From NCBI GenBank assembly GCA_964431025.1, contig CAYSIB010000001.1, forward strand, positions 9,457-73,456: a stretch of 64,000 bases of DNA, read 5' to 3'. The notes below the pieces were generated by a model, which worked only from the letters and a program-made list of their open reading frames with translations, was not told the DNA's origin and did no database searches. The number at the start of each line of letters is the position of its first letter. Positions within the stretch are counted from its first letter, which is position 1. A program made the translations under genes and the position numbers. Origin of the DNA: an uncultured Candidatus Saccharibacteria bacterium. Lineage in GTDB: Bacteria > Patescibacteriota > Saccharimonadia > Saccharimonadales > Saccharimonadaceae. Positions 32,242 through 44,410 of this stretch are shown here, one piece after another.

Positions 32242-34980
32242 ATGCTAGCAAACATTATTCACTTTATTTTAATGCCTATTGTTTGGATGCCTATCGTCGG
32301 TGTCCTGGGCTTTTTAACCTATAGAAATTACAAAAAAATCAACCGCCTCAAGGTCTTAAACGTCGACTCTGTACTTTTGATGCTCGAGATTCCGCGCACC
32401 AACGACAAAAAAGAGCTCGCCGCGGAACAGCTTTTTGCTAGTCTTCACGGTATTCTAAGAGACAAAACCGAACTCAAAAATTCTGGCGGCATCCAGGAGC
32501 ATCTGAGCTTCGAAATCGTTTCCACCGGCGGTCAAATCCGCTTCTACGTCTGGACACCAAAGGTATTGCAGAGTTTCGTAGAAGGCCAAATTTACGCTCA
32601 ATATCCTTCTGTCCAGATTTATAAGGTAAAAGAAGACTACGTCGAAAAAGGGAAGGACTATCCAGTAGTCTATTCTAGCGAAATCGCCTTGACCGAAAAC
32701 GAAGTTTTACCAATTAAGACCTTCGAAAACTTCGAAGTTGACCCACTGGCCGGTATTACAGGTACCCTTGCTAAGCTTAACCCAGACAAGAACGAAGAGC
32801 TCTGGATCCAGATCCTCACTCGCCCTATCCCTGATGACTGGCACAAATCCACTACCGACAAATGGGTCAAAGCTGTCAAATCCGGCAAGCGCATCGGTCT
32901 CTTTGGGATTGACTGGACCTGGCTAATTACCGCCCTAGGCGCACTCTTTCGCCCACCAGAAGGTGGTACCGTCACACCTGTTACCGTAGAACTTTCCGAG
33001 CGCGCCAAAACTCAGGTCGAGAAAGCCGAAGAAAAAGCCACTAAGCTTGGCTACGAAGTCAAAATCCGCTTGGTCTATCTTGGCTCTGACCAGATGGATG
33101 CCAAACTTAATATGCAGGCCCTCGTTGGTACATTTAAACAGTACAATTCTACCAATCTGAACGGCTTCAAGAGCATTGGCGGCACTTTTGACAAAAACGC
33201 GCTCGAAGCCTATCGCTTGCGCCGCTTTACTTCCCGCGGATTTATTCTCAATATTTCCGAGCTCGCATCGGTCTATCACCTCCCTCACACCTCCGTAGAA
33301 ACCCCAAACATCGTCTGGGCGACTTCTAAGACCGCCGAGCCTCCCGCCCAGCTTCCACTTATCACTGGTAACGCCGCGCACGACGAAAACATTTCTGCTT
33401 TTGGTCTTACCAATTTCCGCGGCATTAACCACCAGTTCGGTATGCTCCGTCGCGACCGTTCTCGTCACGTTTATATCATCGGTCAAACTGGCGCCGGTAA
33501 ATCTGGTATGCTTGAGCTCTTTGCCCTCTCCGATATTTTCTACGACCAAGGTTATTGTATTATCGATCCACACGGTGATTTCGCCATTAACAACCTCCGC
33601 TTCGTCCCAGAAAAACGCATCAAAGACGTAGTTTATTTCAACCCTGCCGATACCCAATTCCCAGTCGCCTTTAACCCGCTAGAACTTTCCGACCCAAGCC
33701 GCAAACCTAACGTCACTTCCGAAGTCATCGGCGTGCTAAAACGTATGTTTGGCGACTCCTGGGGTCCTCGCCTCGAGCATATTTTGCGCTACACTCTGCT
33801 TGCCCTACTAGACCGTCCAGAAACCACCTTACTTGATATTTCTCGTATGCTTACGGATAAGGATTTTAGAAAGGAAACACTTGATTATTGTAAAGACGTC
33901 ACCGTGCTTCAATTCTGGAAACACGAATTTGGCCAGTGGAATGACAAGCAGGTCAACGAATCTATCGCCCCAGTCTTAAATAAGGTCGGTGCCTTTACCG
34001 CCAACCCAATCATCAGAAACATCATCGGTCAACCAAAGTCTAGCTTTGACGTTCGTCGCATTATGGACGAAGGAAAAATCCTCGTTGTCAACTTGTCCAA
34101 GGGTCTAATCGGCGAAGACAATGCCGGTATTCTTGGCGCCTTCCTCGTCACTAAAGTTCAGCTCGCTGCGATGTCCCGCTCCGATATTCCAGATGTCGCC
34201 GACCGCCGTCCGTTCTATCTCTACGTCGATGAGTTCCAGAACTTCGCCACCGATTCCTTTGCGGTCATCCTGTCAGAGGCACGCAAATACGGTCTCAATC
34301 TCACCGTCGCCAACCAGTACATTTCCCAGATGACTGACAACGTTCGCGATGCTGTCTTTGGTAACGTCGGTACCACTATTTCTTTCCGTGTCTCTGCTGA
34401 TGACGCCCCACTCCTTTCCAAGCAATTTGAGCCAACCTTTGAAGCCCAAGATTTACTTTCCCTCAACAACCGCAACTTCGTTATCTCCATGATCATTAAC
34501 GGTGAAAAAGTTCCAGCCTTCTCCGCCACCACCCTCTCTATTCCAACTACGCCAAAAGACAATTTTGACGCGATTATCGCCTCCTCTCGCGAGAAATACT
34601 CTCGTCCTCGCGCCGTCGTCGAGGCAGAAATCAAAGAGACTATCGAACAAAGCGAAAAGTACAAGAAAGAGCTTTCCGATTCTGGTCGCGCCGCCGGAGA
34701 AATTGGCGCCATGATGAACCCGCAGAATGGACAGGGAACTATCGCCAAAAAAGGCTTCGTCTACCAACCTTCCCCTAAGGCCGATTTTAAGAAACTCAAA
34801 CTTTCTCCAGACATGGCCGAAGGTAAAACTGATCGTCCGGGCCTAAAAGATCTTGGCAAGTTGCTTGAACAAAATCAAACTAATCTACCAGAAAAGCAGC
34901 TCGAACAGGGAAACGCACCACAAAAATCCCACAATAATCACCATAAGCCACGCCACAAAAATAACTCCAAAAAGCATTAG
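32242..34980 (+). CDS. T4CP/VirB4/HerA-like ATPase (TraD/DUF87-type), membrane-anchored
   Basis: HVYIIGQTGAGKS, IIDPHGD, YVDEFQNF, SEARKYGL, ANQY. Confidence 0.85.
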   Translation: MLANIIHFILMPIVWMPIVGVLGFLTYRNYKKINRLKVLNVDSVLLMLEIPRTNDKKELAAEQLFASLHGILRDKTELKNSGGIQEHLSFEIVSTGGQIRFYVWTPKVLQSFVEGQIYAQYPSVQIYKVKEDYVEKGKDYPVVYSSEIALTENEVLPIKTFENFEVDPLAGITGTLAKLNPDKNEELWIQILTRPIPDDWHKSTTDKWVKAVKSGKRIGLFGIDWTWLITALGALFRPPEGGTVTPVTVELSERAKTQVEKAEEKATKLGYEVKIRLVYLGSDQMDAKLNMQALVGTFKQYNSTNLNGFKSIGGTFDKNALEAYRLRRFTSRGFILNISELASVYHLPHTSVETPNIVWATSKTAEPPAQLPLITGNAAHDENISAFGLTNFRGINHQFGMLRRDRSRHVYIIGQTGAGKSGMLELFALSDIFYDQGYCIIDPHGDFAINNLRFVPEKRIKDVVYFNPADTQFPVAFNPLELSDPSRKPNVTSEVIGVLKRMFGDSWGPRLEHILRYTLLALLDRPETTLLDISRMLTDKDFRKETLDYCKDVTVLQFWKHEFGQWNDKQVNESIAPVLNKVGAFTANPIIRNIIGQPKSSFDVRRIMDEGKILVVNLSKGLIGEDNAGILGAFLVTKVQLAAMSRSDIPDVADRRPFYLYVDEFQNFATDSFAVILSEARKYGLNLTVANQYISQMTDNVRDAVFGNVGTTISFRVSADDAPLLSKQFEPTFEAQDLLSLNNRNFVISMIINGEKVPAFSATTLSIPTTPKDNFDAIIASSREKYSRPRAVVEAEIKETIEQSEKYKKELSDSGRAAGEIGAMMNPQNGQGTIAKKGFVYQPSPKADFKKLKLSPDMAEGKTDRPGLKDLGKLLEQNQTNLPEKQLEQGNAPQKSHNNHHKPRHKNNSKKH

Positions 34981-35053
34981 AGGTATTGATTTTTTCACCA
35001 TTTTGTGCTATAATAAGAAAAGTAACTATTGTTATGCATCTTAGGAGGTATCT

Positions 35054-35647
35054 ATGGGTAGAAAAGTTTTTTACCAAGCCTGGGTTAGCGGTCGTAGCGG
35101 AAAATTACGCAAACTCACCCCTGACCAGATTATGTCTGATCTTAAAAAAGATATTGAACTGGGTCGGGAATGGTCAATCGATCCAAAAGAACTTATCGAG
35201 ATAATCTCGAAACCAGAGTTCTCGGAGTACAAATCAAACGAAATCAAGACCATCATCCTCAATTACTGCGCCGATTTATTAACTGGAGACGTAGTTCTAG
35301 GAGAAGAGCCGCTTGATATTCGCATTATCACCTACTGTTATCATACGTCCTACGGGGATGATGCGGTTGCCGCAAAACTCCATTATAAGCAGAGCGTCTT
35401 AAGCTCCACAATCGACCACTATCTGGCAAAACACAGCGACGCAGTCGCCAACATCGGTGATTCCGACCTCAAAAATTGGCGGAAAAACTGGGAAGCCACT
35501 GCAATCAAAAATTTCTGCAGATTCTTTGGCCCAGAGCTTACACGCTGGGAACTAAAAATCCGCAAAAAGTCCAGAAACGACTTCGAGAAATTTTTCGCAA
35601 ACGAACCCACTCCAGAACCCACTCCACTTCAAGAAACAGGGAATTAA
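35054..35647 (+). CDS. Hypothetical protein (orphan cassette A)
   Basis: 197-aa ORF, SD aggaggt, own -10; stop lies inside palindrome P1. Confidence 0.7.
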   Translation: MGRKVFYQAWVSGRSGKLRKLTPDQIMSDLKKDIELGREWSIDPKELIEIISKPEFSEYKSNEIKTIILNYCADLLTGDVVLGEEPLDIRIITYCYHTSYGDDAVAAKLHYKQSVLSSTIDHYLAKHSDAVANIGDSDLKNWRKNWEATAIKNFCRFFGPELTRWELKIRKKSRNDFEKFFANEPTPEPTPLQETGN

Positions 35648-35660
35648 GCTTCCCTGTTTT
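35634..35660. repeat. Palindrome P1 (AAACAGGGAA-ttaagc-TTCCCTGTTT)
   Basis: Perfect inverted repeat; near-identical copies at 36429 and 37141. Confidence 0.85.
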
Positions 35661-35744
35661 TCTGTCTTACGCCTCTATCCGTATGCTATAATTAACCTGT
35701 AACCTGCGTTTGTTCTTTAAAGTTTTGTGGAGGTGATGTTGTTT

Positions 35745-36443
35745 ATGAAGATACAAAGAGTTAACCAACAACTAATATTTACCCCTCTAAATAGGTGTGA
35801 TCCGACAGAAACAGAAATATCAGTCTCAAAATTTATCAAGGAAACCAAGGTCAAAAGCAAAAATCCCGAGACTTCTCTAATTATGACTTTAACTCCGGGA
35901 GTAGTTTTTAATACTTTGCCGTTCCTTTCTACCCGTAGACAAAAAGCTGAAGTCTGTGCCAACTTACTTGATTACTTATCGTTTCGCTTGGAGAAATACA
36001 CCGCGCAAATCGTCAAAGGGGAGACGCCGGCTAGCGTTTTCGTCATCGCAAGCTACTGTCTAAATCACATCTGGGGAACCTATAGCCCCAATAAGACATC
36101 TTGGCCCTCACCCTATTATGCTTCAGCAAACCGTTTTTGCTCGAGCCTGGTTAAGACCGCCGCGGAGGCTCATAGCGTGACGAATCTCGGACAAACTGTT
36201 TCCGATCTTTTCATGATAAATCCAACCTTTCGTCCGCCCAGAAAAACCACTTTTAAGCCCTGGTACGACAACGAATCTGGTACCGCCAAAGAATCTGCCA
36301 TCAGAAACAACGTTTACAAAATTATTCGTAGCGACCCCCTCACGTGGATAGAAGAACTAGGTTTTTTTCTAATCTGGCTTTCAAAAGCCACCATTGTAAG
36401 AGATGTCCATTCCTCCAAAAAGCGTAGCAAAACAGGGAATTAG
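35745..36443 (+). CDS. Hypothetical protein (orphan cassette B)
   Basis: About 232-aa ORF, SD ggaggtg; stop lies inside palindrome P2. Confidence 0.68.
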   Translation: MKIQRVNQQLIFTPLNRCDPTETEISVSKFIKETKVKSKNPETSLIMTLTPGVVFNTLPFLSTRRQKAEVCANLLDYLSFRLEKYTAQIVKGETPASVFVIASYCLNHIWGTYSPNKTSWPSPYYASANRFCSSLVKTAAEAHSVTNLGQTVSDLFMINPTFRPPRKTTFKPWYDNESGTAKESAIRNNVYKIIRSDPLTWIEELGFFLIWLSKATIVRDVHSSKKRSKTGN

Positions 36444-36455
36444 CTTCCCTGTTTT
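36429..36455. repeat. Palindrome P2
   Basis: aaaacagggaa-ttagc-ttccctgtttt. Confidence 0.85.
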
Positions 36456-36457
36456 TC

Positions 36458-36793
36458 CTATTTTACGCTCATCATCGCAAACTGATCGTAATACTTTTGC
36501 ATCTGTTTAGGGTCTGTCTGGAAATAGTTTTCACCAAAAAAGTAATCACAAAACTCCTCCCTCGCCCTACATATCTCCCTAAGCTTAGCCGAATCCTTGT
36601 TGAACTTCATCGAAAGGTCAAATAGTTCTAGTGCTCTGTCAATTGCTGCGTTCATCCGTCGCTCGTTTCTTCCTTGCCATTTTAGCGACCTAGACACTTC
36701 GCTACCAATATTTCCCATTTGCATATTGAAGGGTAACTCGCCCCATCTACCCTCAGCCAGCTCTTGATGCTGATAGCCTACTCCGTTATCCAC
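36458..36793 (-). CDS. Small helical hypothetical protein coupled to DUF5674 gene
   Basis: HQELAEGRW..LPF..QMGNIGSEVSR motif; overlaps upstream gene stop. Confidence 0.75.
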   Translation of the reverse strand: MDNGVGYQHQELAEGRWGELPFNMQMGNIGSEVSRSLKWQGRNERRMNAAIDRALELFDLSMKFNKDSAKLREICRAREEFCDYFFGENYFQTDPKQMQKYYDQFAMMSVK

Positions 36794-37122
36794 CTCTGTA
36801 CTACCTCTGTTATTTTCCGCCTAATTTCAGGATCTTCTACGCCCCTAGAGCGGTTATTTTGTCTTGGACGAATATTAATCATGGAATCAAATTCGATAAA
36901 ATCTTCCGGAGCATCATCTGGATAAAGGTTTATACCCCAAAGAGACTCCTGCAGGGAATCATTCTCCAAAAATAGCTGTTCCAAGTCTGCATGAAGCTGC
37001 GCATCAACGGCAAGCAATCCTTTATCAACGTCCACCACACCCTTTACCATACATTCATCAAAGACGACCTCTGAATTTTTTAGTAAATCATTTTTATTAA
37101 TTGGTGACTTTATTATTTTCAT
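36778..37122 (-). CDS. DUF5674-like protein
   Basis: KGVVDV, HAD, LWGINLYP, IEFDSMINIRP, NRSRGVED; -10/N6/ATG start. Confidence 0.78.
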   Translation of the reverse strand: MKIIKSPINKNDLLKNSEVVFDECMVKGVVDVDKGLLAVDAQLHADLEQLFLENDSLQESLWGINLYPDDAPEDFIEFDSMINIRPRQNNRSRGVEDPEIRRKITEVVQRWITE

Positions 37123-37140
37123 ATCTATATTTTACCATAG

Positions 37141-37169
37141 AAAAACAGGGAATTAACTTCCCTGTTTTT
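37141..37169. repeat. Palindrome P3
   Basis: aaaaacagggaa-ttaac-ttccctgttttt, on the promoter side of the DUF5674 gene. Confidence 0.85.
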
Positions 37170-37547
37170 TCTACCTCACCCCTGTTATAACGCTTCCCCA
37201 CCCCTGTTAGTTCTCTGTTCTGCCTCTGTTAGAACCAAAGCCTTACCATAGCAATCACTTTACCGCCCCTGTTTTATCTCTGTTAAATCCACCCGAGGCC
37301 CTAAGAGCCGCTAAAACGCTTTGAAAAGTCAAAGACGCTATTACAGTCGTCCACGAGCACCAAACGGCCTAGAATCGCACGAGAATGGGGAAATACGACA
37401 AAAATAAGCACAAGCACTACAAAACACGGCAAAATCGACCTACAAAAGACGTATGGACAATCGTCTTTTTCCCAAATCTCCAATGTCGCACAATATATCT
37501 TTTACGACATTAACCCTAGGACAATATGGACGATAGAGTTATGTGTT

Positions 37548-37718
37548 AATAGCCAATAGAAACCTATCTATAGGTCCATAAAGGCGGATTTCACCTTAGA
37601 AGAATGAGGAGCAAACACCTAACGAGCACGATTTAGACCGGCGCAGTTAGGGTTTGCGAGTCATTCGGATAAGGCTGAAACCAAGAGGACCTATAGATAG
37701 GTTTTTATTGGCGCTATT
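37548..37718. repeat. Rod-like palindromic element copy 1 (117-bp core 37574-37690)
   Basis: Core identical to 41328-41444; about 30-bp inverted arms. Confidence 0.9.
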
Positions 37719-38002
37719 CAGGCTCTTCTGACCTCTCTCAGAATCGCTTTTTCACCCCCACCCCTGTTACATCGCGTTTTTTGGCCAATTTTGATCCAAA
37801 TTTGCCCAAATTTTTCAATTTGACTTTTCCCTGCATTTATTTTGTTTTGAGTAGTTCTCCCCTGTTATTCCCTCCCCCACCCGCCAAAATCGAGCCATTT
37901 TCCAACTTTAATTTCTCGTTCAATTCCCCACTAATTCCAAAAACCGAACAAAAACCGAACTTAAGATTTCCCCTGTTTTAGCCCCTGTTGTATAATATAT
38001 CC

Positions 38003-38680
38003 ATGTACAAAGAGTTCAAATCCGAGCTTGTTTCCCTTGCCGACGACGAGTATCGTGACTTTTCCATGCGCGGCATTCCCTGTGACCGCCCTTTCATTGG
38101 TGTTCGCATCCCATTAATTAGGAAATTAACGAATAAAATCCCTGCTTCCGTCTTTCCTGAATTCCTTAGCGCAAAACCAATTGCTATAGAAGAAGTCATC
38201 GCCCGGGGTTTTATTATCGCACGCCTCCCGTATGAAGAAATGCTAAAATATTTTGATTCCCAAATACAATTCCTAGATAACTGGTGCACCGTTGACGTCT
38301 TTTGCTCCGCACTAAGAAAGCCCGTGAAAGGCCACGAAGAAGGCTTTCTTCCAAAAATCGAAGAACTTCTCCAATCTAAAGACGAATTTTCCGTTCGTGC
38401 TGGACTCGTGCTTTTGTTGGACTTGTATGTTAAACCAGAATATTTGCAGCTGGTTTTTGATCGCATCGAATCCTTACGCAATCGTGATGAATATTATGTC
38501 AAAATGGCGCTCGCCTGGCTCCTCGCCGAATGTTTTATCAAATATCCAGACATTACATACGACTATCTAAACAGTTCCAAACTCGGAAAATGGACTTTCA
38601 ATAAAGCCATCTCCAAGATTTGCGATTCTTATCGCGTCACTCCCGAGGTCAAATCCGAACTCAAACTCCTCCGCAAGTAA
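38003..38680 (+). CDS. DNA alkylation repair protein (AlkD-like HEAT repeat)
   Basis: IGVRIP, LDNWCTVD, EFSVR, YYVKMALAWLLAE. Confidence 0.88.
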   Translation: MYKEFKSELVSLADDEYRDFSMRGIPCDRPFIGVRIPLIRKLTNKIPASVFPEFLSAKPIAIEEVIARGFIIARLPYEEMLKYFDSQIQFLDNWCTVDVFCSALRKPVKGHEEGFLPKIEELLQSKDEFSVRAGLVLLLDLYVKPEYLQLVFDRIESLRNRDEYYVKMALAWLLAECFIKYPDITYDYLNSSKLGKWTFNKAISKICDSYRVTPEVKSELKLLRK

Positions 38681-38687
38681 TTCTCTT

Positions 38688-38984
38688 GAGCTACTTCTCT
38701 TCCGCGAAGCCTATCATTTTATTGAGAGTGGAAAAGGAAATATCTATGGGACCACCGGCCTTAGTACTATTCTAAATGAATTCCCTCTCGACATGGTCTA
38801 CGCAGGCAACATCTATTTTGGTGATGGTACGAGATATGATAACGAAACTGGCGGCGTAAACTGGTCACAATATGCTCTGCCCGACAATCAAGCATCTGCG
38901 GTCAACTTCAGCGACGTCTACGTTGGCCCCAATCACGGCAATCAAAGAAGATATGGCTTCTCCGTCCGCTGTGTAGCGAAATAA
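38688..38984 (+). pseudogene. Silent FISUMP-like C-terminal cassette C1
   Basis: ELLLFREAYHFIESG...FPLDMVYAG...NWSQ...RRYGFSVRCVAK*; no N-terminal part or own promoter. Confidence 0.8.
38696..38735 (+). repeat. 40-bp cassette-start repeat R1
   Basis: tctcttccgcgaagcctatcattttattgagagtggaaaa; copies at 39265, 40151, 41008. Confidence 0.95.
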
Positions 38985-39251
38985 CTCGGCGGCTCCGGAG
39001 AGAACCGCACCGATACTACTCAAAGGAATAAGTTCATTAATTCACCATATAACTTCCCCTACTCCGGGTTCTACAATTACGGAGGCGGGGTCGGCGGTCA
39101 GGGCTCGGACGGGCACTGGTGGTCTCGTAGTGCCACAACTCAGGCCGGCCAAGCCTACCACTTCGACCTGGATACCAATGGCCGCGTGTACCCGCAGAAC
39201 AACTACTCTAGCGTTGGGTACGGGTTCGCAGTCCGCTGCATGGCTGAGTAG
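38985..39251 (+). pseudogene. Silent FISUMP-like C-terminal cassette C2
   Basis: Starts right after C1 stop; SPYNFPYSG...WWSRS...AYHF...GYGFAVRCMAE*; no start codon. Confidence 0.85.
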
Positions 39252-39264
39252 CTATTGGCTATAT

Positions 39265-39304
39265 TCTCTTCCGCGAAGCCTATCATTTTATTGAAAGTGG
39301 AGAA
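39265..39304 (+). repeat. 40-bp cassette-start repeat R2
   Basis: One mismatch to consensus (gaaagt). Confidence 0.95.
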
Positions 39305-39541
39305 ACGACTGCTGGCACAAATTCTGGTGGCCCAGCAGCTAGCGCAGCCATCAAACAATACCCATTCTCCTATACGTATTCTGGACGCGTCATTGGCGGT
39401 AACATTCAATACATTGGTGAATATGGATTTCTATGGACAATCAGAACCGAAACGGATACTGATGCAAATACGCTTAGATTCTACGAGCCAGTCGTATCGG
39501 TAACAAATTCCTTCAATAGAAGACAAGGTTTTCCCGTCCGC
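39266..39541 (+). pseudogene. Silent FISUMP-like C-terminal cassette C3 (ends at GFPVR)
   Basis: LFREAYHFIESGE...YPFSYTYSG...LWT...RRQGFPVR, then runs into the fic stop codon. Confidence 0.78.
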
Positions 39542-40101
39542 TACAAATTATGCACGTCGTATTCAGATTGCTCTTCGTATTCGTAAGAAGATTGTATCCC
39601 CTTCATATACACTTCACGATCATTGATATCGGAAGTCAATGCAGACTCGAGCAGAGTCTTTATTTCCAAATCATTTATCGGCGAACGCTCCATCGCAGAA
39701 AGATATTCTTCCTTCCCTATCTTTGACCAATCTACACATTTTCCAAGTCTCTTCTTCAAAATCTGATCTAGCCAAATTCTCGTTGCCCGACCATTTCCTT
39801 CACGGAACGGATGTGCCACGTTCATTTCTACATATTTTTTTACAATTTCATCAAAAGTATTTTCCGGAAGATTATCGATGGTTTTTAAAGTATCTTCAAG
39901 ATAAATTGCCGGCGCAAACCGAAAATTCCCCTTAGAGAGATCCACGTCACGAATCTTCCCTGCAAAGTCAAAAACGTCCTGGAATAAATAACGATGTATC
40001 TGTTTTAGCCCCTCAGTCGTACCGACCTCAAACTCGTCGATTTTTCCAGTATCATATAATTCAATAGCTCGTTTTTTACTAGCTAATTCTTCATTCTGCA
40101 T
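39541..40101 (-). CDS. fic: Class III-type Fic protein adenylyltransferase
   Basis: HPFREGNGRATR, C-terminal GIQSSYEYEE; tggtataat-N6-ATG at 40101. Confidence 0.92.
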   Translation of the reverse strand: MQNEELASKKRAIELYDTGKIDEFEVGTTEGLKQIHRYLFQDVFDFAGKIRDVDLSKGNFRFAPAIYLEDTLKTIDNLPENTFDEIVKKYVEMNVAHPFREGNGRATRIWLDQILKKRLGKCVDWSKIGKEEYLSAMERSPINDLEIKTLLESALTSDINDREVYMKGIQSSYEYEEQSEYDVHNL

Positions 40102-40150
40102 ACTACTATTATACCATGAAAACCGCACCTCTTTAAGCTCTTAAGCTACT

Positions 40151-40190
40151 TCTCTTCCGCGAAGCCTATCATTTTATTGAGAGTGGAGAA
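40151..40190 (+). repeat. 40-bp cassette-start repeat R3
   Basis: Consensus copy. Confidence 0.95.
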
Positions 40191-40448
40191 ACAAGTACGT
40201 GGTCTGAAGGACCGAGCATTAGCATCACCCTTTTCCCTTTCTCGCAAACTTATGCAGGTGGCATAGGAGACAATGGAACTGGCGGTGGATTAGATGACGG
40301 AACAGATCTAGAATATGGACTATACCACACGATGAGAGCACTATCATCCGATCATGCAAACTACTTCGATTCTCATCAAGGAAGTTATATTATACCTCAA
40401 AACAACGGGCCAAGAAAATGGGGTATGCCCGTCCCGCTTTACAAATAA
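40152..40448 (+). pseudogene. Silent FISUMP-like C-terminal cassette C4 (3' end altered)
   Basis: LFREAYHFIESGE...FPFSQTYAG...PQNNGPRKWGMPV-PLYK*. Confidence 0.72.
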
Positions 40449-40472
40449 ACATAAGTGTGATAGCATAAGAAC

Positions 40473-40543
40473 ATAAAGGAAGTGGCCCAGAATTCCACTT
40501 CCGAATGTTAGGTTTAGCTCGTCGCTTTAGCGGCGGGCTTTTT
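40473..40543 (+). ncRNA. Putative antisense sRNA (type I antitoxin-like)
   Basis: TGa-TAGCAT -10 at 40458-40466, hairpin ggaagtgg/ccacttcc, terminator agctcgtcgc/gcggcgggct+T5 whose G-U pairs favour the + strand. Confidence 0.45.
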
Positions 40544-40595
40544 TGAGAACAAACGATACATTGTATTTTCCAATATGTATTGTGATTCCAAGCAT
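40527..40595 (-). CDS. 22-aa small peptide MLGITIHIGKYKCIVCSQKARR (type I toxin-like candidate)
   Basis: SD aaaggag upstream; stop sits in the loop region of the opposite-strand terminator. Confidence 0.45.
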   Translation of the reverse strand: MLGITIHIGKYNVSFVLKKARR

Positions 40596-40748
40596 ACGTC
40601 CCACTCCTTTCCCAAAAATGCCGGCGGGTTTATCTGGTTCACCTACCTCGCAGTTAGCATTTCTGTAACTTACGCTGTAGCCAAAACCCCACACCCAGTT
40701 TTACTGTCTCAAATTATTCCGCTAATTGCAAGCGCTAGCATAATGATT

Positions 40749-40994
40749 AACCGCACCAATGCTGCTCAAAGGGATAAGTTCATTAGTTCACCATATAACT
40801 TCCCCTACTCCGGGTACTACGATTACGGAAGCGGGGTCAACAATCAGGGCTCGGACGGGTACTGGTGGTCTAGAAGCAGCTTCACTGCGGCCGGCCAAGC
40901 CTACAACTTCCGCCCGTATACCGATGGCCGCGTGAACCCGCAGAACAACAATGACGTTGGGTACGGGTTCGCGGTCCGCTGCGTAGTTGAGTAG
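40749..40994 (+). pseudogene. Silent FISUMP-like C-terminal cassette C5 (paralog of C2)
   Basis: NRT..QRDKFISSPYNFPYSG...WWSRS...GYGFAVRCVVE*; about 85% nt identical to C2. Confidence 0.85.
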
Positions 40995-41007
40995 CTATTG
41001 AGCTTTA

Positions 41008-41047
41008 TCTCTTCCGCGAAGCCTATCATTTTATTGAGAGTGGAGAA
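41008..41047 (+). repeat. 40-bp cassette-start repeat R4
   Basis: Consensus copy. Confidence 0.95.
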
Positions 41048-41314
41048 ACCAGCACAGTAGAAATGACGATAATTGAAACTGCACTCTCATATCCAACAGA
41101 ACTCCAATACTCTGGATATACAGACGGATCAAGGGGGACAATTGGTGGCAGAGATTCGGGTGGCTGGTTTTGGGTGCCACGGGCCATAAGCAGCATTGCC
41201 GCAAACGGATTAGATATCAGAGCAGCCGGGTTCAACCCGCAGACATTCACAAGTAAGAAAACGGGATATGACGTCCGCTGTGTAGCCAAGGCGTACCTAG
41301 ATTGGCAAGTTTAA
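41009..41314 (+). pseudogene. Silent FISUMP-like C-terminal cassette C6
   Basis: LFREAYHFIESGE...YPTELQYSG...WFW...KKTGYDVRCVAK. Confidence 0.78.
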
Positions 41315-41466
41315 TTCTATTTCTCAAGTCCATAAAGGCGGATTTCACCTTAGAAGAATGAGGAGCAAACACCTAACGAGCACGATTTAGACCGGCGCAG
41401 TTAGGGTTTGCGAGTCATTCGGATAAGGCTGAAACCAAGAGGACTTGAAAATAGAATTAAGCTTGC
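41304..41466. repeat. Rod-like palindromic element copy 2 (117-bp core 41328-41444)
   Basis: Identical core, different roughly 25-bp inverted arms. Confidence 0.9.
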
Positions 41467-41492
41467 TAACCACAAGCACAAATTAGCCTCTA

Positions 41493-42029
41493 CTACTTGT
41501 AATACCCCTTCCCTTTCACCCTCACATCCACATACTGCGGATGAAGGTCGTTCTCAGTCAAATACTTCAGCATTGTCTTCGTATCCTCTGCGCTCACCGC
41601 CGTACCCCTATCTACGCTCAACTTAAAATACGTCTCATTCCCATCTAGGTAAATATCGATTTCTCGAGTTTTCCCTGCCGGCACCACCGCTCTATTAAGT
41701 GACAATCCAATGTCAGAAAGATCGATCTCCAGCTGCCCCACATACTCCTTAATTTTACTAGTGATTCCCTGCCCTGATTCGTCAATAATTTCCACTGTCG
41801 GCTGAGGAATGTATTTTGACATCTCAATCTTTTTACGATTCGTCATCCAAGTTGTCACTTCCATCACGATGATGATAGCGATAATCGCAAGAATCGCCAC
41901 TAGTGCCAGCACCTTAAAAATCTTCTTGTTTTTCTCTTTTTTCCTAGCAGCCAGACGCTCCGATTCAGACTCTTGCCTCTCCCATTCCTGGGCAATCGTC
42001 CGCCCGACTCTTACATCATTCTTTCTCAT
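41493..42029 (-). CDS. Bitopic membrane protein, FtsQ/DivIB-like C-terminal domain
   Basis: Follows murG, single TM, ends YVDVRVKGKGYYK. Confidence 0.6.
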   Translation of the reverse strand: MRKNDVRVGRTIAQEWERQESESERLAARKKEKNKKIFKVLALVAILAIIAIIIVMEVTTWMTNRKKIEMSKYIPQPTVEIIDESGQGITSKIKEYVGQLEIDLSDIGLSLNRAVVPAGKTREIDIYLDGNETYFKLSVDRGTAVSAEDTKTMLKYLTENDLHPQYVDVRVKGKGYYK

Positions 42030-43278
42030 CCAGACCACCCGTATCATTCGCTAATTTTATCAAAATATCCGCAAGATCTTTTGCTGCCTTTGGCTTATAC
42101 GTCTCATGCAATTTCGCCGCTAAATCTTTTCTAACTTTTGGACTTCTTACCAGTCTTTGTACTTCTTCTAGCAAAATCCCAGGTTGGTTAACCATGCGCC
42201 CATCTTTCACCATCACTACCGCCCCAAGACTCAGCAGCCTCTCTGCATTTTTTACTTGGTGACTACCAGGAAGTTGTTCAAACGGCACTAGTATTACCGC
42301 TTTTGCGAGCGCTGCCAACTCTGCAATTGTGGTTGCTCCGGCACGAGAAACTACTACGTCCGCCGCACCCATCAGCTCATTCATCGCCGAGTTAAACGCC
42401 CACATTCTAAAATTAGACTTGAGCTTAGCTTTATCCCAATCTTCATATTTTTTAAGGTCAACCATCTCTTCATAACGGCTGCGTCCAGCTACCAGCCCCA
42501 CACTAGTAAACTTCAACATCTCTGGCAAAATTTCACGCACCGCTTCATTAATGTGCTGCGCGCCCTGGCTTCCGCCCGTGATCACTACTAGTGGTTTTTC
42601 TTCATCAAACCCAAACGCTTTTTTAAGCTGCTTCTGCTTAGTCTCACTAACCCTCTTAAACTCCGGCGCCACCGGCACCCCAGTAAGCACCACTTTTGGA
42701 TCAGGCTCTACTCCGTCAATTTCTTCCACCGGCAAACTTGTTGCCACTTTTGTCGCGTGCTTCACTAGAAGCCTATTCGCTAACCCCGGCGTCGCATCAC
42801 TCTCATGAATCACATACGGAATCTTATAAAATCTCGCCACAATCCCCACCGGCAAGCCCACAAATCCCCCTTTCAAGAAAATCACATCTGGGCGATTCTT
42901 TTTTAGAAGCATCCGGAAGAAGCTTTGGAATATCCCACCCATAAATCCAATCAATCCGCCAATATTTCCAAATATTAAATCTTTTAGCGTAGTGTCCCAG
43001 TTTTTAAAATAATCCGCCAAACTCCATCCAGCATAGCGTCTAAATTTTCCCGCCGCAACTTTTCTTACCTGAATATACTGTCTTTTTCCCGAAACACGCG
43101 ACTCTTCACCCCATGCCACCCCTATTTCTGTTGTAATTTTTACAACATTTTTGTAATATTTCTTATCAGTCCAGAATTCTACTCTGGCTCTCGGTTTTTC
43201 TTCTAAAATCTCACGGACGACCGCGACGGCTGGCGTAATGTGTCCCCCCGAGCCCCCGCCTACTACTAATACTTTCAT
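42016..43278 (-). CDS. murG: UDP-GlcNAc:lipid I GlcNAc transferase
   Basis: GGGSGGHITP, KGGFVG, HESD, TGGSQGA, SRAGATT. Confidence 0.95.
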   Translation of the reverse strand: MKVLVVGGGSGGHITPAVAVVREILEEKPRARVEFWTDKKYYKNVVKITTEIGVAWGEESRVSGKRQYIQVRKVAAGKFRRYAGWSLADYFKNWDTTLKDLIFGNIGGLIGFMGGIFQSFFRMLLKKNRPDVIFLKGGFVGLPVGIVARFYKIPYVIHESDATPGLANRLLVKHATKVATSLPVEEIDGVEPDPKVVLTGVPVAPEFKRVSETKQKQLKKAFGFDEEKPLVVITGGSQGAQHINEAVREILPEMLKFTSVGLVAGRSRYEEMVDLKKYEDWDKAKLKSNFRMWAFNSAMNELMGAADVVVSRAGATTIAELAALAKAVILVPFEQLPGSHQVKNAERLLSLGAVVMVKDGRMVNQPGILLEEVQRLVRSPKVRKDLAAKLHETYKPKAAKDLADILIKLANDTGGLDEKE

Positions 43279-44410
43279 TTTTTACCTCCCTTCCAGTATA
43301 ACACGAAAGTTGACAAACCAATCCAAGTGAGAAAGCGATAAATATCATACTCGTACCACCATAAGAAAGCAGTGGCAAAGTGATACCCGTCAACGGCACC
43401 AATCCCGTCATCGCCGCGATATTTACCACCACTTGCGCCGCAATCCAGGCAAACACTCCTACTACCACTAAACTTTCTTCCGTACTACTCTTAGTCGCGA
43501 CTTTCAAGATTCGCATTAGCAAGAAAGTAAACGCAATCACTACCGCAGAAAGCCCCACAAAACCAAATGTCTCGCCCATCACCGCAAAGACCGAGTCGTT
43601 AATTGACTCCGGCAGGTATCCCGTCGCCTGCACGCTATTCCCTATTCCAACCCCCAAGAGTCCACCCGTACCAATCGCCATTTTAGCATTGTCGATATGA
43701 TAAGTTTCATCCGAACTTCCGCTTCCAGAAAAGGTCGTCATACGCTCCAAGCGATGCGGAGAACTCACGATCGCCACCACTCCACCAACCAGTGCGAGCG
43801 CCACAATTACCGCAAACACGCTTATTTTTATTCCGCCCATATACATGATCGCAAGCACTATTGCTAGCACTGCTAGACCCGTACCCAGATCCTTCTGCAA
43901 AATCACTACAAAGAACAGTGCTAGAAGCGCCACAATCGCGTATGGCTGCAAATAATCACGCGACTCTAGCTTTCCTTCTTTCTTCCACTTCGCCGTCAGT
44001 TGTGCAAGATATAGCACTAACCCCAGCTTCAAAAATTCTGCCGGCTGAAAACTTACCGCCCCAAGGTTAAACCACCTACATCCACCTAACTCACACTTCG
44101 CAAGCGAACTCCCAATCAATGAAAGCAATGCTAACGCCGCGCAAAGCCCCAGCCCCACAAATACCAAAATCTTCGAATAAGTTTTCAGCTTTTCAAATGG
44201 AAATTTAAACGCTACGATAAACGCCGCTACAGATAATCCTACCGACAAAAGCTGATGCAAGAAAAAATAATTCGAACTATAATCTGTTCCGTACGCCGAA
44301 TTCATAAAATTAGCCCTTTGCGGCCCAATCGCATAAATCACCACCAGCCCCACAGCCAGTAGCACAAAGGTAATAATTGCAATCAATCGATCACTCTTAT
44401 GCTTTCTCAT
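43211..44410 (-). CDS. ftsW: SEDS peptidoglycan glycosyltransferase
   Basis: FQPAEFLK, QKDLGT, LPESINDSVF, LPLLSYGG; dcw context. Confidence 0.9.
   Translation of the reverse strand: MRKHKSDRLIAIITFVLLAVGLVVIYAIGPQRANFMNSAYGTDYSSNYFFLHQLLSVGLSVAAFIVAFKFPFEKLKTYSKILVFVGLGLCAALALLSLIGSSLAKCELGGCRWFNLGAVSFQPAEFLKLGLVLYLAQLTAKWKKEGKLESRDYLQPYAIVALLALFFVVILQKDLGTGLAVLAIVLAIMYMGGIKISVFAVIVALALVGGVVAIVSSPHRLERMTTFSGSGSSDETYHIDNAKMAIGTGGLLGVGIGNSVQATGYLPESINDSVFAVMGETFGFVGLSAVVIAFTFLLMRILKVATKSSTEESLVVVGVFAWIAAQVVVNIAAMTGLVPLTGITLPLLSYGGTSMIFIAFSLGLVCQLSCYTGREVKNESISSRRGLGGTHYASRRGRP

Follow-up and report, generated by a model that had tools for sequence, protein, structure and literature searches.

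Orphan lectin-tip cassettes as probable frozen products of a diversity-generating retroelement in an uncultured Saccharibacteria bacterium

Main finding

Diversity-generating retroelements (DGRs) are usually described as overwriting their target, each variant erasing the last. Here, we analyzed a 64,000-nt stretch (the window) of the genome of an uncultured Candidatus Saccharibacteria bacterium and found two cassettes, C2 and C5, which are in all probability frozen products of such an element, kept together with ten similar copies beside an active writer. The reverse transcriptase (RT), the template repeat (TR), the live variable region (VR), the full-length target gene and the orphan copies are all recognizable within one genome and open to comparison between samples. 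Identification of the first four of these confirms the DGR origin of the pattern seen in C2 and C5. That the two cassettes are archived products is supported by their invariance across samples, their divergence from the TR at non-adenine positions, their missing cis elements and the lack of a gene body; any functional re-use of the archive is hypothetical. Note that "cassette C1" to "cassette C6" denote units of an array in the window, and "contig C1", "C5", "C10" and so on denote contigs of the 25-contig, 702-kb genome, the window being contig C1:9457-73456. In window coordinates, the two cassettes and the associated features are:

39003..39251, + strand: orphan VR cassette C2, the 82-codon C-terminal half of a FISUMP/C-type-lectin (CLec) domain (NRTDTTQRNKF...GYGFAVRCMAE*), without start codon
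39054..39251, + strand: part of cassette C2 homologous to the TR of DGR-2 (contig C10:24874-25068); the first 51 nt of the cassette are a conserved 5' arm outside the TR
40749..40994, + strand: orphan VR cassette C5, an 81-codon C-terminal half-domain (NRTNAAQRDKF...GYGFAVRCVVE*)
40575..40994, + strand: 139-aa open reading frame (ORF) called by gene callers around cassette C5; no Pfam match, without the N-terminal half of the lectin domain

Cassettes C2 and C5 differ mainly at template adenines

A MAFFT alignment of cassette C2 (window 39003-39251) with cassette C5 (40749-40994) yielded 37 substitutions and one 3-nt gap in 246 aligned positions. Codon positions 1, 2 and 3 account for 21, 11 and 5 of the substitutions, respectively, such that 32 fall at positions 1-2; 28 of the 37 have an A in one copy. 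The changed codons number 26, of which 3 are synonymous, and 2 additional codons touch the indel. An earlier note on this DNA had arrived at near-exactly these figures by hand (about 38 substitutions, about 32 at positions 1-2, about 3 of about 27 changed codons synonymous, about 28 with an A). The note was likewise right that neither cassette is the other's pure template: the true one is located on another contig, at C10:24874-25068. The TR-homologous span, which corresponds to window 40800-40994 in cassette C5, comprises 195 positions, 51 with A and 144 without. Within it, C2 and C5 differ at 19/51 template-A versus 13/144 other positions (Fisher p = 1.2e-5), and the pattern is thus not due to chance.

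Two diversity-generating retroelements in the genome

Two RTs with PF00078 scores above the cut-off are encoded in the genome, at contig C10:25308-26030 (- strand) and contig C1:1894-2580 (+ strand). RT-2 carries the motif GIVIGNLTSQ and RT-1 the motif GIVIGNLSSQ, both together with YVDD. The sole PDB match of the RT is 8ub7_A, a 328-aa reverse transcriptase (E = 8e-19) with IGSLTSQ in the alignment, which we take to be the DGR RT of a Bordetella phage. In contrast, the NCBIfam models for group II, retron and Drt RTs all scored far below their cut-offs. The elements are laid out as follows:

Contig C10:25122-26306, - strand: DGR-2 RT; PF00078, DGR motifs
Contig C10:24874-25068, + strand: DGR-2 template repeat, reading ...SGNYNYGGGVNNQGSNGNWW...NFNLNTNGNVNPQNNNNVGNGFAVRCVAE, also SGNYNYGGGVNNQGSNGNWW...NFNLNTNGNVNPQNNNNVGNGF; convergent with the RT
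Contig C1:880-5427, upstream of the window: DGR-1, with a 269-aa accessory ORF, RT, convergent TR, and a VR ending a 700-aa FISUMP protein

The template was recovered by a BLAST search of C2 and C5 against the genome, which returned 12 near-full copies: two on contig C1, which are C2 and C5 themselves, one each on contigs C14, C2, C3, C23 and C11, two on C6, and three on C17. Further matches were a 13th copy at C10:24874-25068 and short 3'/5' pieces at the contig ends C10:27289-27259 and C5:53-1. In an alignment of all 13 copies, the C10 copy has an A at almost every column that varies in the others and loses homology upstream of TTCCCCTACTCC / TTCCCCTACTCCGGG, which marks it as the TR of a DGR. 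It lies beside the RT and matches C2, C5 and the 10 other copies, with mismatches mostly at its adenines.

Along the minus strand of contig C10, DGR-2 shows the order VR end, GC hairpin, 294-aa ORF, RT and convergent TR. The accessory ORFs of DGR-2 (294 aa) and DGR-1 (269 aa) directly precede and overlap their RTs; neither has a match in Pfam, NCBIfam or PDB sequences, nor to any Avd/HRDC family. The live VR of DGR-2 forms the 3' end of a FISUMP/C-type-lectin gene of ~596 aa, which runs from contig C5 (-) into C10 (-). Contig C5 ends 53 nt inside this VR; in a public contig (L030), C5:446-1, the VR and C10:27289 onward are joined, and the flanks match this genome at 100%. PF09603 and TIGR02145 Fib_succ_major match over the C-terminus of the 596-aa protein (P0008), from which the DGR-2 target is predicted to have a C-type-lectin-type fold.

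These findings bear on the simplest alternative, namely that no retroelement was involved and that the pattern arose from positive selection on the lectin tip or from an assembly artefact. Indeed, the excess of position 1-2 and nonsynonymous changes between C2 and C5 would, taken alone, also fit diversifying selection. The earlier note had named the lack of an RT or template as grounds for giving up a DGR; both are present, the adenines of the TR lie mainly in AAC/AAT codons, and the copies show clear adenine specificity relative to the TR. In addition, the array recurs exactly in megahit and scaffold assemblies made independently for other samples. Selection alone and assembly artefact are both refuted by these observations, and we regard this alternative as extremely improbable.

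Orphan copies lack a gene body and 3' elements

The orphan family corresponds to the last ~82 codons of the full-length target gene. All 12 copies are 5'-truncated, and no copy lies in a frame that includes the N-terminal FISUMP half-domain. Their open frames span 81-168 codons, with the exception of the C6:7711 copy, in which the frame shifts just before its stop. At C2 and C5, the open frames measure 88 and 158 codons; neither holds the N-terminal half, and C2 has no start codon before the VR. Given its lack of a Pfam match and of the N-terminal half-domain, the 139-aa ORF around cassette C5 is probably not a functional lectin.

The 12 orphans share their start nucleotide (AAYCGCACC / TGCCGCACC). 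They have in common a 66-nt 5' arm, its first 51 nt lying outside the TR, and a GC-rich 3' arm of ~45 nt (GGGTTCGCGGTCCGCTGCGTAG). Both arms also occur in the full-length gene, the GC-rich 3' arm in the TR and the live VR as well. A 20-nt extension past the stop codon (CTCTCTGTCCTCCA; CTATTGCTCTCTGTCCTCCA) is common to the live VR and the TR and is absent from the orphans, including cassettes C2 and C5. Similarly, when downstream folding was scored against shuffled sequences, GC hairpins were seen only after canonical VRs (z = -3.2, -6.1), and 9/12 orphans, including C2 and C5, had none (z = -0.5 and 0.0 for C2 and C5, respectively). The DGR-1 VR is followed by a 10-bp GC stem. In phage BPP-1, homing requires the initiation of mutagenic homing (IMH) region plus a downstream cruciform (PMC3240598).

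Compared with the TR, C2 is mismatched at 20 template-A and 6 other positions, and C5 at 14 and 8. That is, ~70% of their mismatches are at adenines, which is a strong but not exclusive excess. Over the 12 copies, the range is 9-22 mismatches at the 51 A sites and 3-13 at the 144 others.

Live variable regions vary between assemblies while C2 and C5 do not

Assemblies of the same strain were collected through exact-protein look-ups (ENA ERZ280190xx, ERZ28654xxx/ERZ286550xx and ERZ272567xx; Logan SRR125290xx; NCBI GCA_017432435.1). In L030, the RT-proximal VR differs from the TR at 17 A sites and at no non-A site over 195 nt. Other A-only variants of this VR were present in samples ERZ28654927 (L056 + L032) and ERZ28019072 (L031), and the two contigs spanning the TR, L030 and L031, do not differ in it. 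DGR-1 served as a positive control: its TR was invariant and its VR came in four variants among 9 other assemblies. In the six assemblies which differ from this genome at DGR-1, all 15-21 differences in 3.8-5.2 kb lie inside C1:3359-3504, the VR. The flanks of the varying VRs are 99.9-100% identical between assemblies.

The orphans behave differently. Nine assemblies covering the array (L036-L044) equal the window except for one single-nucleotide polymorphism (SNP) within the cassettes, at 40792, and two singletons outside them. SNP 40792 (C>T, Pro>Leu) lies in the 5' arm of cassette C5, outside its TR-homologous part; it is the sole recurrent polymorphism of the array and defines two strain lineages with identical orphan VRs. 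Cassette C2 has the same sequence in L027, L036, L037 and L042; in L026 and L038-L040, it is unchanged from position 39089 onward. The VR of cassette C5 is identical on 21 public contigs (P0001, P0002) as well as in L036-L044. Two samples, ERZ28019011 and ERZ28019072, belong to both the live-VR and the orphan sets. Since live VRs vary and C2 and C5 are invariant among these same-strain assemblies, we conclude that the population has active DGRs, which are not rewriting the two cassettes.

Alternatively, C2 and C5 might be ordinary remote targets, rewritten in place as in Treponema denticola, and their GC-rich 3' arm (GGGTTCGCGGTCCGCTGCGTAG) and the ~70% of TR mismatches at adenines would be compatible with this. 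We nonetheless consider it very unlikely. The cassettes are identical in at least nine assemblies whose live VRs differ, they have 6 (C2) and 8 (C5) non-adenine mismatches versus none in live VRs, and they lack the gene body, the 20-nt extension and the hairpin. Of the features of an active target, neither cassette shows an intact gene, adenine-only mismatches, a 3' extension with hairpin, or variation between samples; the GC-rich arm is retained.

A central patch records haplotypes other than the present template

Most of the non-adenine differences of the orphans fall in a central patch, at alignment columns 125-142 (window ~39125-39142 and ~40871-40888). Three haplotypes exist in this patch (WWSRS-AYTT / -ATTQ / -SFTA), which differ at non-adenine positions: the TR and live VRs have CGTAGCGCCTATACTACG, six orphans including C2 have haplotype H1, and five including C5 have H2. 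Each haplotype is combined with several A-site patterns on both sides. Live VRs always carry the TR haplotype. Together with the other non-adenine differences, this indicates that the present TR has not overwritten the orphans. The patch haplotypes need either former TR alleles or short-patch recombination, of which neither was found.

Constant scaffold adenines argue for selection on the orphan tracts

We counted nine independent mutation patterns among the 12 orphans. Across these, 46% of cells were changed at adenines in positions 1-2 of AAY codons versus 8.5% at other adenines, and the TR has AAY codons at nearly all variable sites. The scaffold adenines, located in four TAC, two CAG, CAA, AGC, ACT and ACC codons, were unchanged in all nine patterns. 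Codon 55 is AAC in the TR and reads TAC (Tyr) in 8/9 patterns, creating a G-Y-G-F-x-V-R-C motif which is also found in the functional targets of relatives. In VR-b, a live VR described below, a scaffold adenine is changed (TAC>TGC), and the enzyme is hence able to mutate such sites. Combined with this ability, the constant scaffold adenines and the Tyr at codon 55 argue that the orphan tracts passed selection at the protein level.

Signs of recombination among copies and alternative junctions of the target gene

The same mutated tract, with ~20 identical A-site changes, is present in C2, C14:2181-1933 and C6:7711-7462, in contexts that differ in upstream motif, 5'-arm variant and downstream sequence. 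Likewise, C6:54596 equals C17:2377 in its mutated tract. Independent mutagenesis cannot account for identical tracts in different flanks; they imply copying after mutagenesis.

Following CGCTGCGTAG, the full-length target gene has two 3' contexts: the accessory-RT locus (L030/L032/L056), and a sequence absent from the assembly of this genome. The latter junction occurs in L055/L057 (samples ERZ28019011 and ERZ28654617). Its VR, VR-b, differs from the TR at 21 A sites and no non-A site over 187 nt (L034); being the same in both samples, VR-b appears to be detached and fixed. Two further contigs look recombinant or may be assembly chimeras: L035 (561 nt), which joins the upstream sequence of the contig C3 locus to the VR of window cassette C5, and P0136 (547 nt), in which the upstream sequence of the TR runs into the 3' part of an orphan resembling C2:47646. 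Taken together, the identical tracts in differing flanks and the alternative 3' junctions point to recombination through the conserved arms.

The cassette array in the window

C2 and C5 are interspersed with silent cassettes of a second type, here called type A, in the order A1 - C2 - A3 - Fic(-) - A4 - C5 - A6:

37574..37690, + strand: 117-nt element, copy 1, identical to 41328-41444; no Rfam match
38697..38984, + strand: type-A silent cassette C1 (= A1), beginning with the exact 29-nt junction repeat LFREAYHFIESG
39266..39550, + strand: type-A silent cassette C3 (= A3), junction repeat followed by an unrelated C-terminal half-domain
39541..40128, - strand: Fic/DOC family gene within the array, on the opposite strand (PF02661, E = 8e-14)
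40152..40448, + strand: type-A silent cassette C4 (= A4)
40726..40748, + strand: motif TTGCAAGCGCTAGCATAATGATT directly 5' of cassette C5; version TGCAAGCKCTAGCATRAT is common to 6/12 orphan copies in an upstream alignment
41009..41314, + strand: type-A silent cassette C6 (= A6), containing the 83-aa gene-caller ORF 41063-41314
41328..41444, + strand: 117-nt element, copy 2, directly past the last cassette

Cassette C2 starts 18 nt past the stop codon of the preceding cassette. As the TGCAAGCKCTAGCATRAT motif common to half of the orphans shows, these have spread as a unit slightly longer than the coding part. The 29-nt type-A junction is present in 10 copies in the genome, which are identical at 29/29 positions though the cassette bodies are unrelated. 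One of the ten lies inside an expressed FISUMP gene, at contig C1:2-643, the 3' end of which (contig C1:337-634) is 98% identical to cassette A1. Allowing up to 3 mismatches, the junction repeat was absent from 60 other species of the genus.

The two copies of the 117-nt element bracket the cassette array plus a DNA-alkylation-repair gene, and on contigs C11 and C5, too, cassettes are followed by diverged copies, of ~73% identity. An Rfam scan of window 34000-44000 at E <= 0.1 returned nothing, which leaves this repeat unclassified. The neighbors of the array (MurG, FtsW, MraY, PBP, a DNA-alkylation-repair protein and a VirD4-like ATPase) include no site-specific recombinase. The ATPase, a 912-aa coupling ATPase of the VirD4/TraG type (window 32242-34980), lies just upstream of the region of orphan genes and cassettes and may mark a mobile or conjugative island.

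How the archive might have arisen

We infer the following course of events. Adenine-mutagenic retrohoming would have written each orphan tract into an expressed gene, given that the scaffold adenines never changed and that codon 55, as in functional targets, is Tyr in 8/9 patterns. RecA-type recombination through the conserved arms would then have moved or copied the tract to promoterless sites, at which the DGR would no longer rewrite it; a RecA is encoded at contig C2:49604-50386 (E = 8e-141). The outcome would be either a bank of pre-selected tips that could return to the expressed gene by recombination or a fossil record of earlier tips.

The first outcome would amount to a two-tier system, in which the DGR writes tips at a single RT-proximal site and recombination banks the selected ones in promoterless stores, from where they could be swapped back. 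We offer this only tentatively and consider it rather unlikely. Were it true, a tiny epibiont would possess a random generator together with a heritable memory of useful binding specificities. Re-use of the orphans would provide the first link between retroelement hypermutation and antigenic variation of the cassette type, and would explain how useful adhesin specificities persist in ultra-small, host-dependent bacteria.

The competing interpretation, to which we give a real though somewhat less than even chance, holds that the orphans are non-functional debris, 3' ends left behind by duplication, rearrangement or C-terminal displacement, recording DGR activity and never re-used. It gains from the lack of cassette switching at the type-A1 gene in 9 other assemblies, from the absence of start codons and promoters, and from the ordinary mutations and old haplotypes that the orphans carry; moreover, the other 3' junction with its fixed VR in two samples looks like a rearrangement rather than programmed switching. 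Yet a reduced genome of 0.7 Mb retains 12 VR orphans and 10 type-A cassettes plus type-C and type-D cassettes. The VR orphans share their start nucleotide, their arms are conserved at the DNA level, and the ten type-A junctions are identical at all 29 positions. Between samples, the array matches base for base, and apart from the shift in the C6:7711 copy the orphan frames have no internal stops or frameshifts. Even if the orphans are only fossils, they constitute a rare dated record of DGR outputs and past template alleles and still define the 3' elements that separate a live from a dead VR.

Several observations weigh against an archive of selected tips assembled by recombination. The synonymous A of a GGA codon also never varies in the nine patterns, so the preference for AAY codons may in part reflect the enzyme and not selection. 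The invariance of the orphans is seen at the assembly level, and low-frequency variation in situ may exist. No second TR allele that would explain H1 and H2, which are not derivable from the present TR, was found in the genome or in the protein cluster of the TR ORF. The finding of identical tracts at several loci depends on short-read assemblies. Finally, re-expression of an orphan was never seen: the type-A1 gene is identical wherever covered in the 9 other assemblies, and no expression-site VR carrying the sequence of an orphan was found. The earlier note had proposed that C2 and C5 are archived DGR-mutagenised tips coupled to a cassette library. The archived part holds up, in view of the missing gene body, the missing 3' extension and hairpin, the non-adenine differences and the invariance in at least nine assemblies. 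The coupling stays hypothetical: there are signs of recombination among copies, but the type-A1 gene, the one expressed gene comparable across assemblies, showed no cassette switching.

Relatives and known systems

RTs of this type occur in 45 of 61 searched genomes of the genus, this genome included, and the relatives inspected show the same VR-accessory-RT-TR layout. In eight relatives, there are 1-2 close VRs per TR. The extra VR copies examined in four of these (G069, G015, G022, G003) are all in long open frames including the CPxGWRLP half. Judging by these frames, truncation is not the rule there and, among the species inspected, the truncation of the orphans is special to this one. Searching 40 relatives with the TR gave only weak matches (<= 80% identity, different species), and scanning JGI metagenome contigs with the 28-nt 5' arm of the VR gave none.

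DGRs with multiple or remote targets of the C-type-lectin fold are known, with seven non-adjacent targets in Treponema denticola and eight tandem ones in Stenotrophomonas (Wu et al. 2018, PMC5758913), and the DGRs of the Candidate Phyla Radiation form clade 2 of Roux et al. 2021 (PMC8144416). VRs that share a TR have been reported to differ in activity (PMC10907252), and a single non-coding VR, one of four in Pelodictyon, has been mentioned in passing (PMC3521204). A full-text literature search revealed nothing on orphan, truncated or archived sets of VRs.

The present system resembles cellular multi-target DGRs in its IGxxxSQ RT, AAY-rich TR and adenine-specific mutagenesis, in that the VR forms the very 3' end of the gene for a CLec/FISUMP surface protein and precedes a GC hairpin, and in that one TR matches many copies dispersed over the genome. 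It differs from them in that 12 of the 13 matching copies are start-less C-terminal half-domains among non-DGR cassettes, that the orphans have non-adenine differences, and that C2 and C5 are invariant across samples. In addition, its 294-aa accessory protein matches no Avd/HRDC family, and its TR is convergent with the RT.

Antigenic variation from silent cassettes operates in the Neisseria pilE/pilS, Borrelia vlsE/vls and Mycoplasma genitalium MgPa/MgPar systems. As in these, the copies described here are promoterless and partial, represent the variable part of a surface protein, are bounded by sequence common to the expressed gene, and are arrayed in a small, host-associated, RecA-positive genome. 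Unlike in these, transfer into the expression site was not observed, no guanine quadruplex (G4) or other initiating element was identified, and the variable content stems from a retroelement instead of accumulated point mutation.

C-terminal displacement arrays, made up of orphan C-terminal toxin modules, lie downstream of rhs and cdiA genes. These share with the present array the displaced 3' gene fragments that begin at one in-frame junction (here LFREAYHFIESG, NRTDTTQR or WRLPTGGSGGEY), the occurrence of this junction in full-length genes, and the unrelated cargo between fragments (here Fic). Unlike the rhs and cdiA modules, those found here come without immunity genes and are lectin half-domains instead of toxins, some of them DGR-written.

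Two further groups of cassettes and copies were seen elsewhere in the genome. Contig C3:60879-63931 holds a tandem array of at least six more C-terminal half-domain cassettes with in-frame junctions (S/G)WRLPTGGSGGEY, which differ from those of the other types; they are interleaved with one VR orphan and two type-A cassettes. Whole-domain FISUMP copies at C14:1333-1932, C17:1493-2131, C6:53792-54568 and C6:54911-55525, devoid of a signal peptide or N-terminal region, share a TLYDTRDGNSYVVRKLADGNCWM-type junction, and each of them adjoins a VR orphan.

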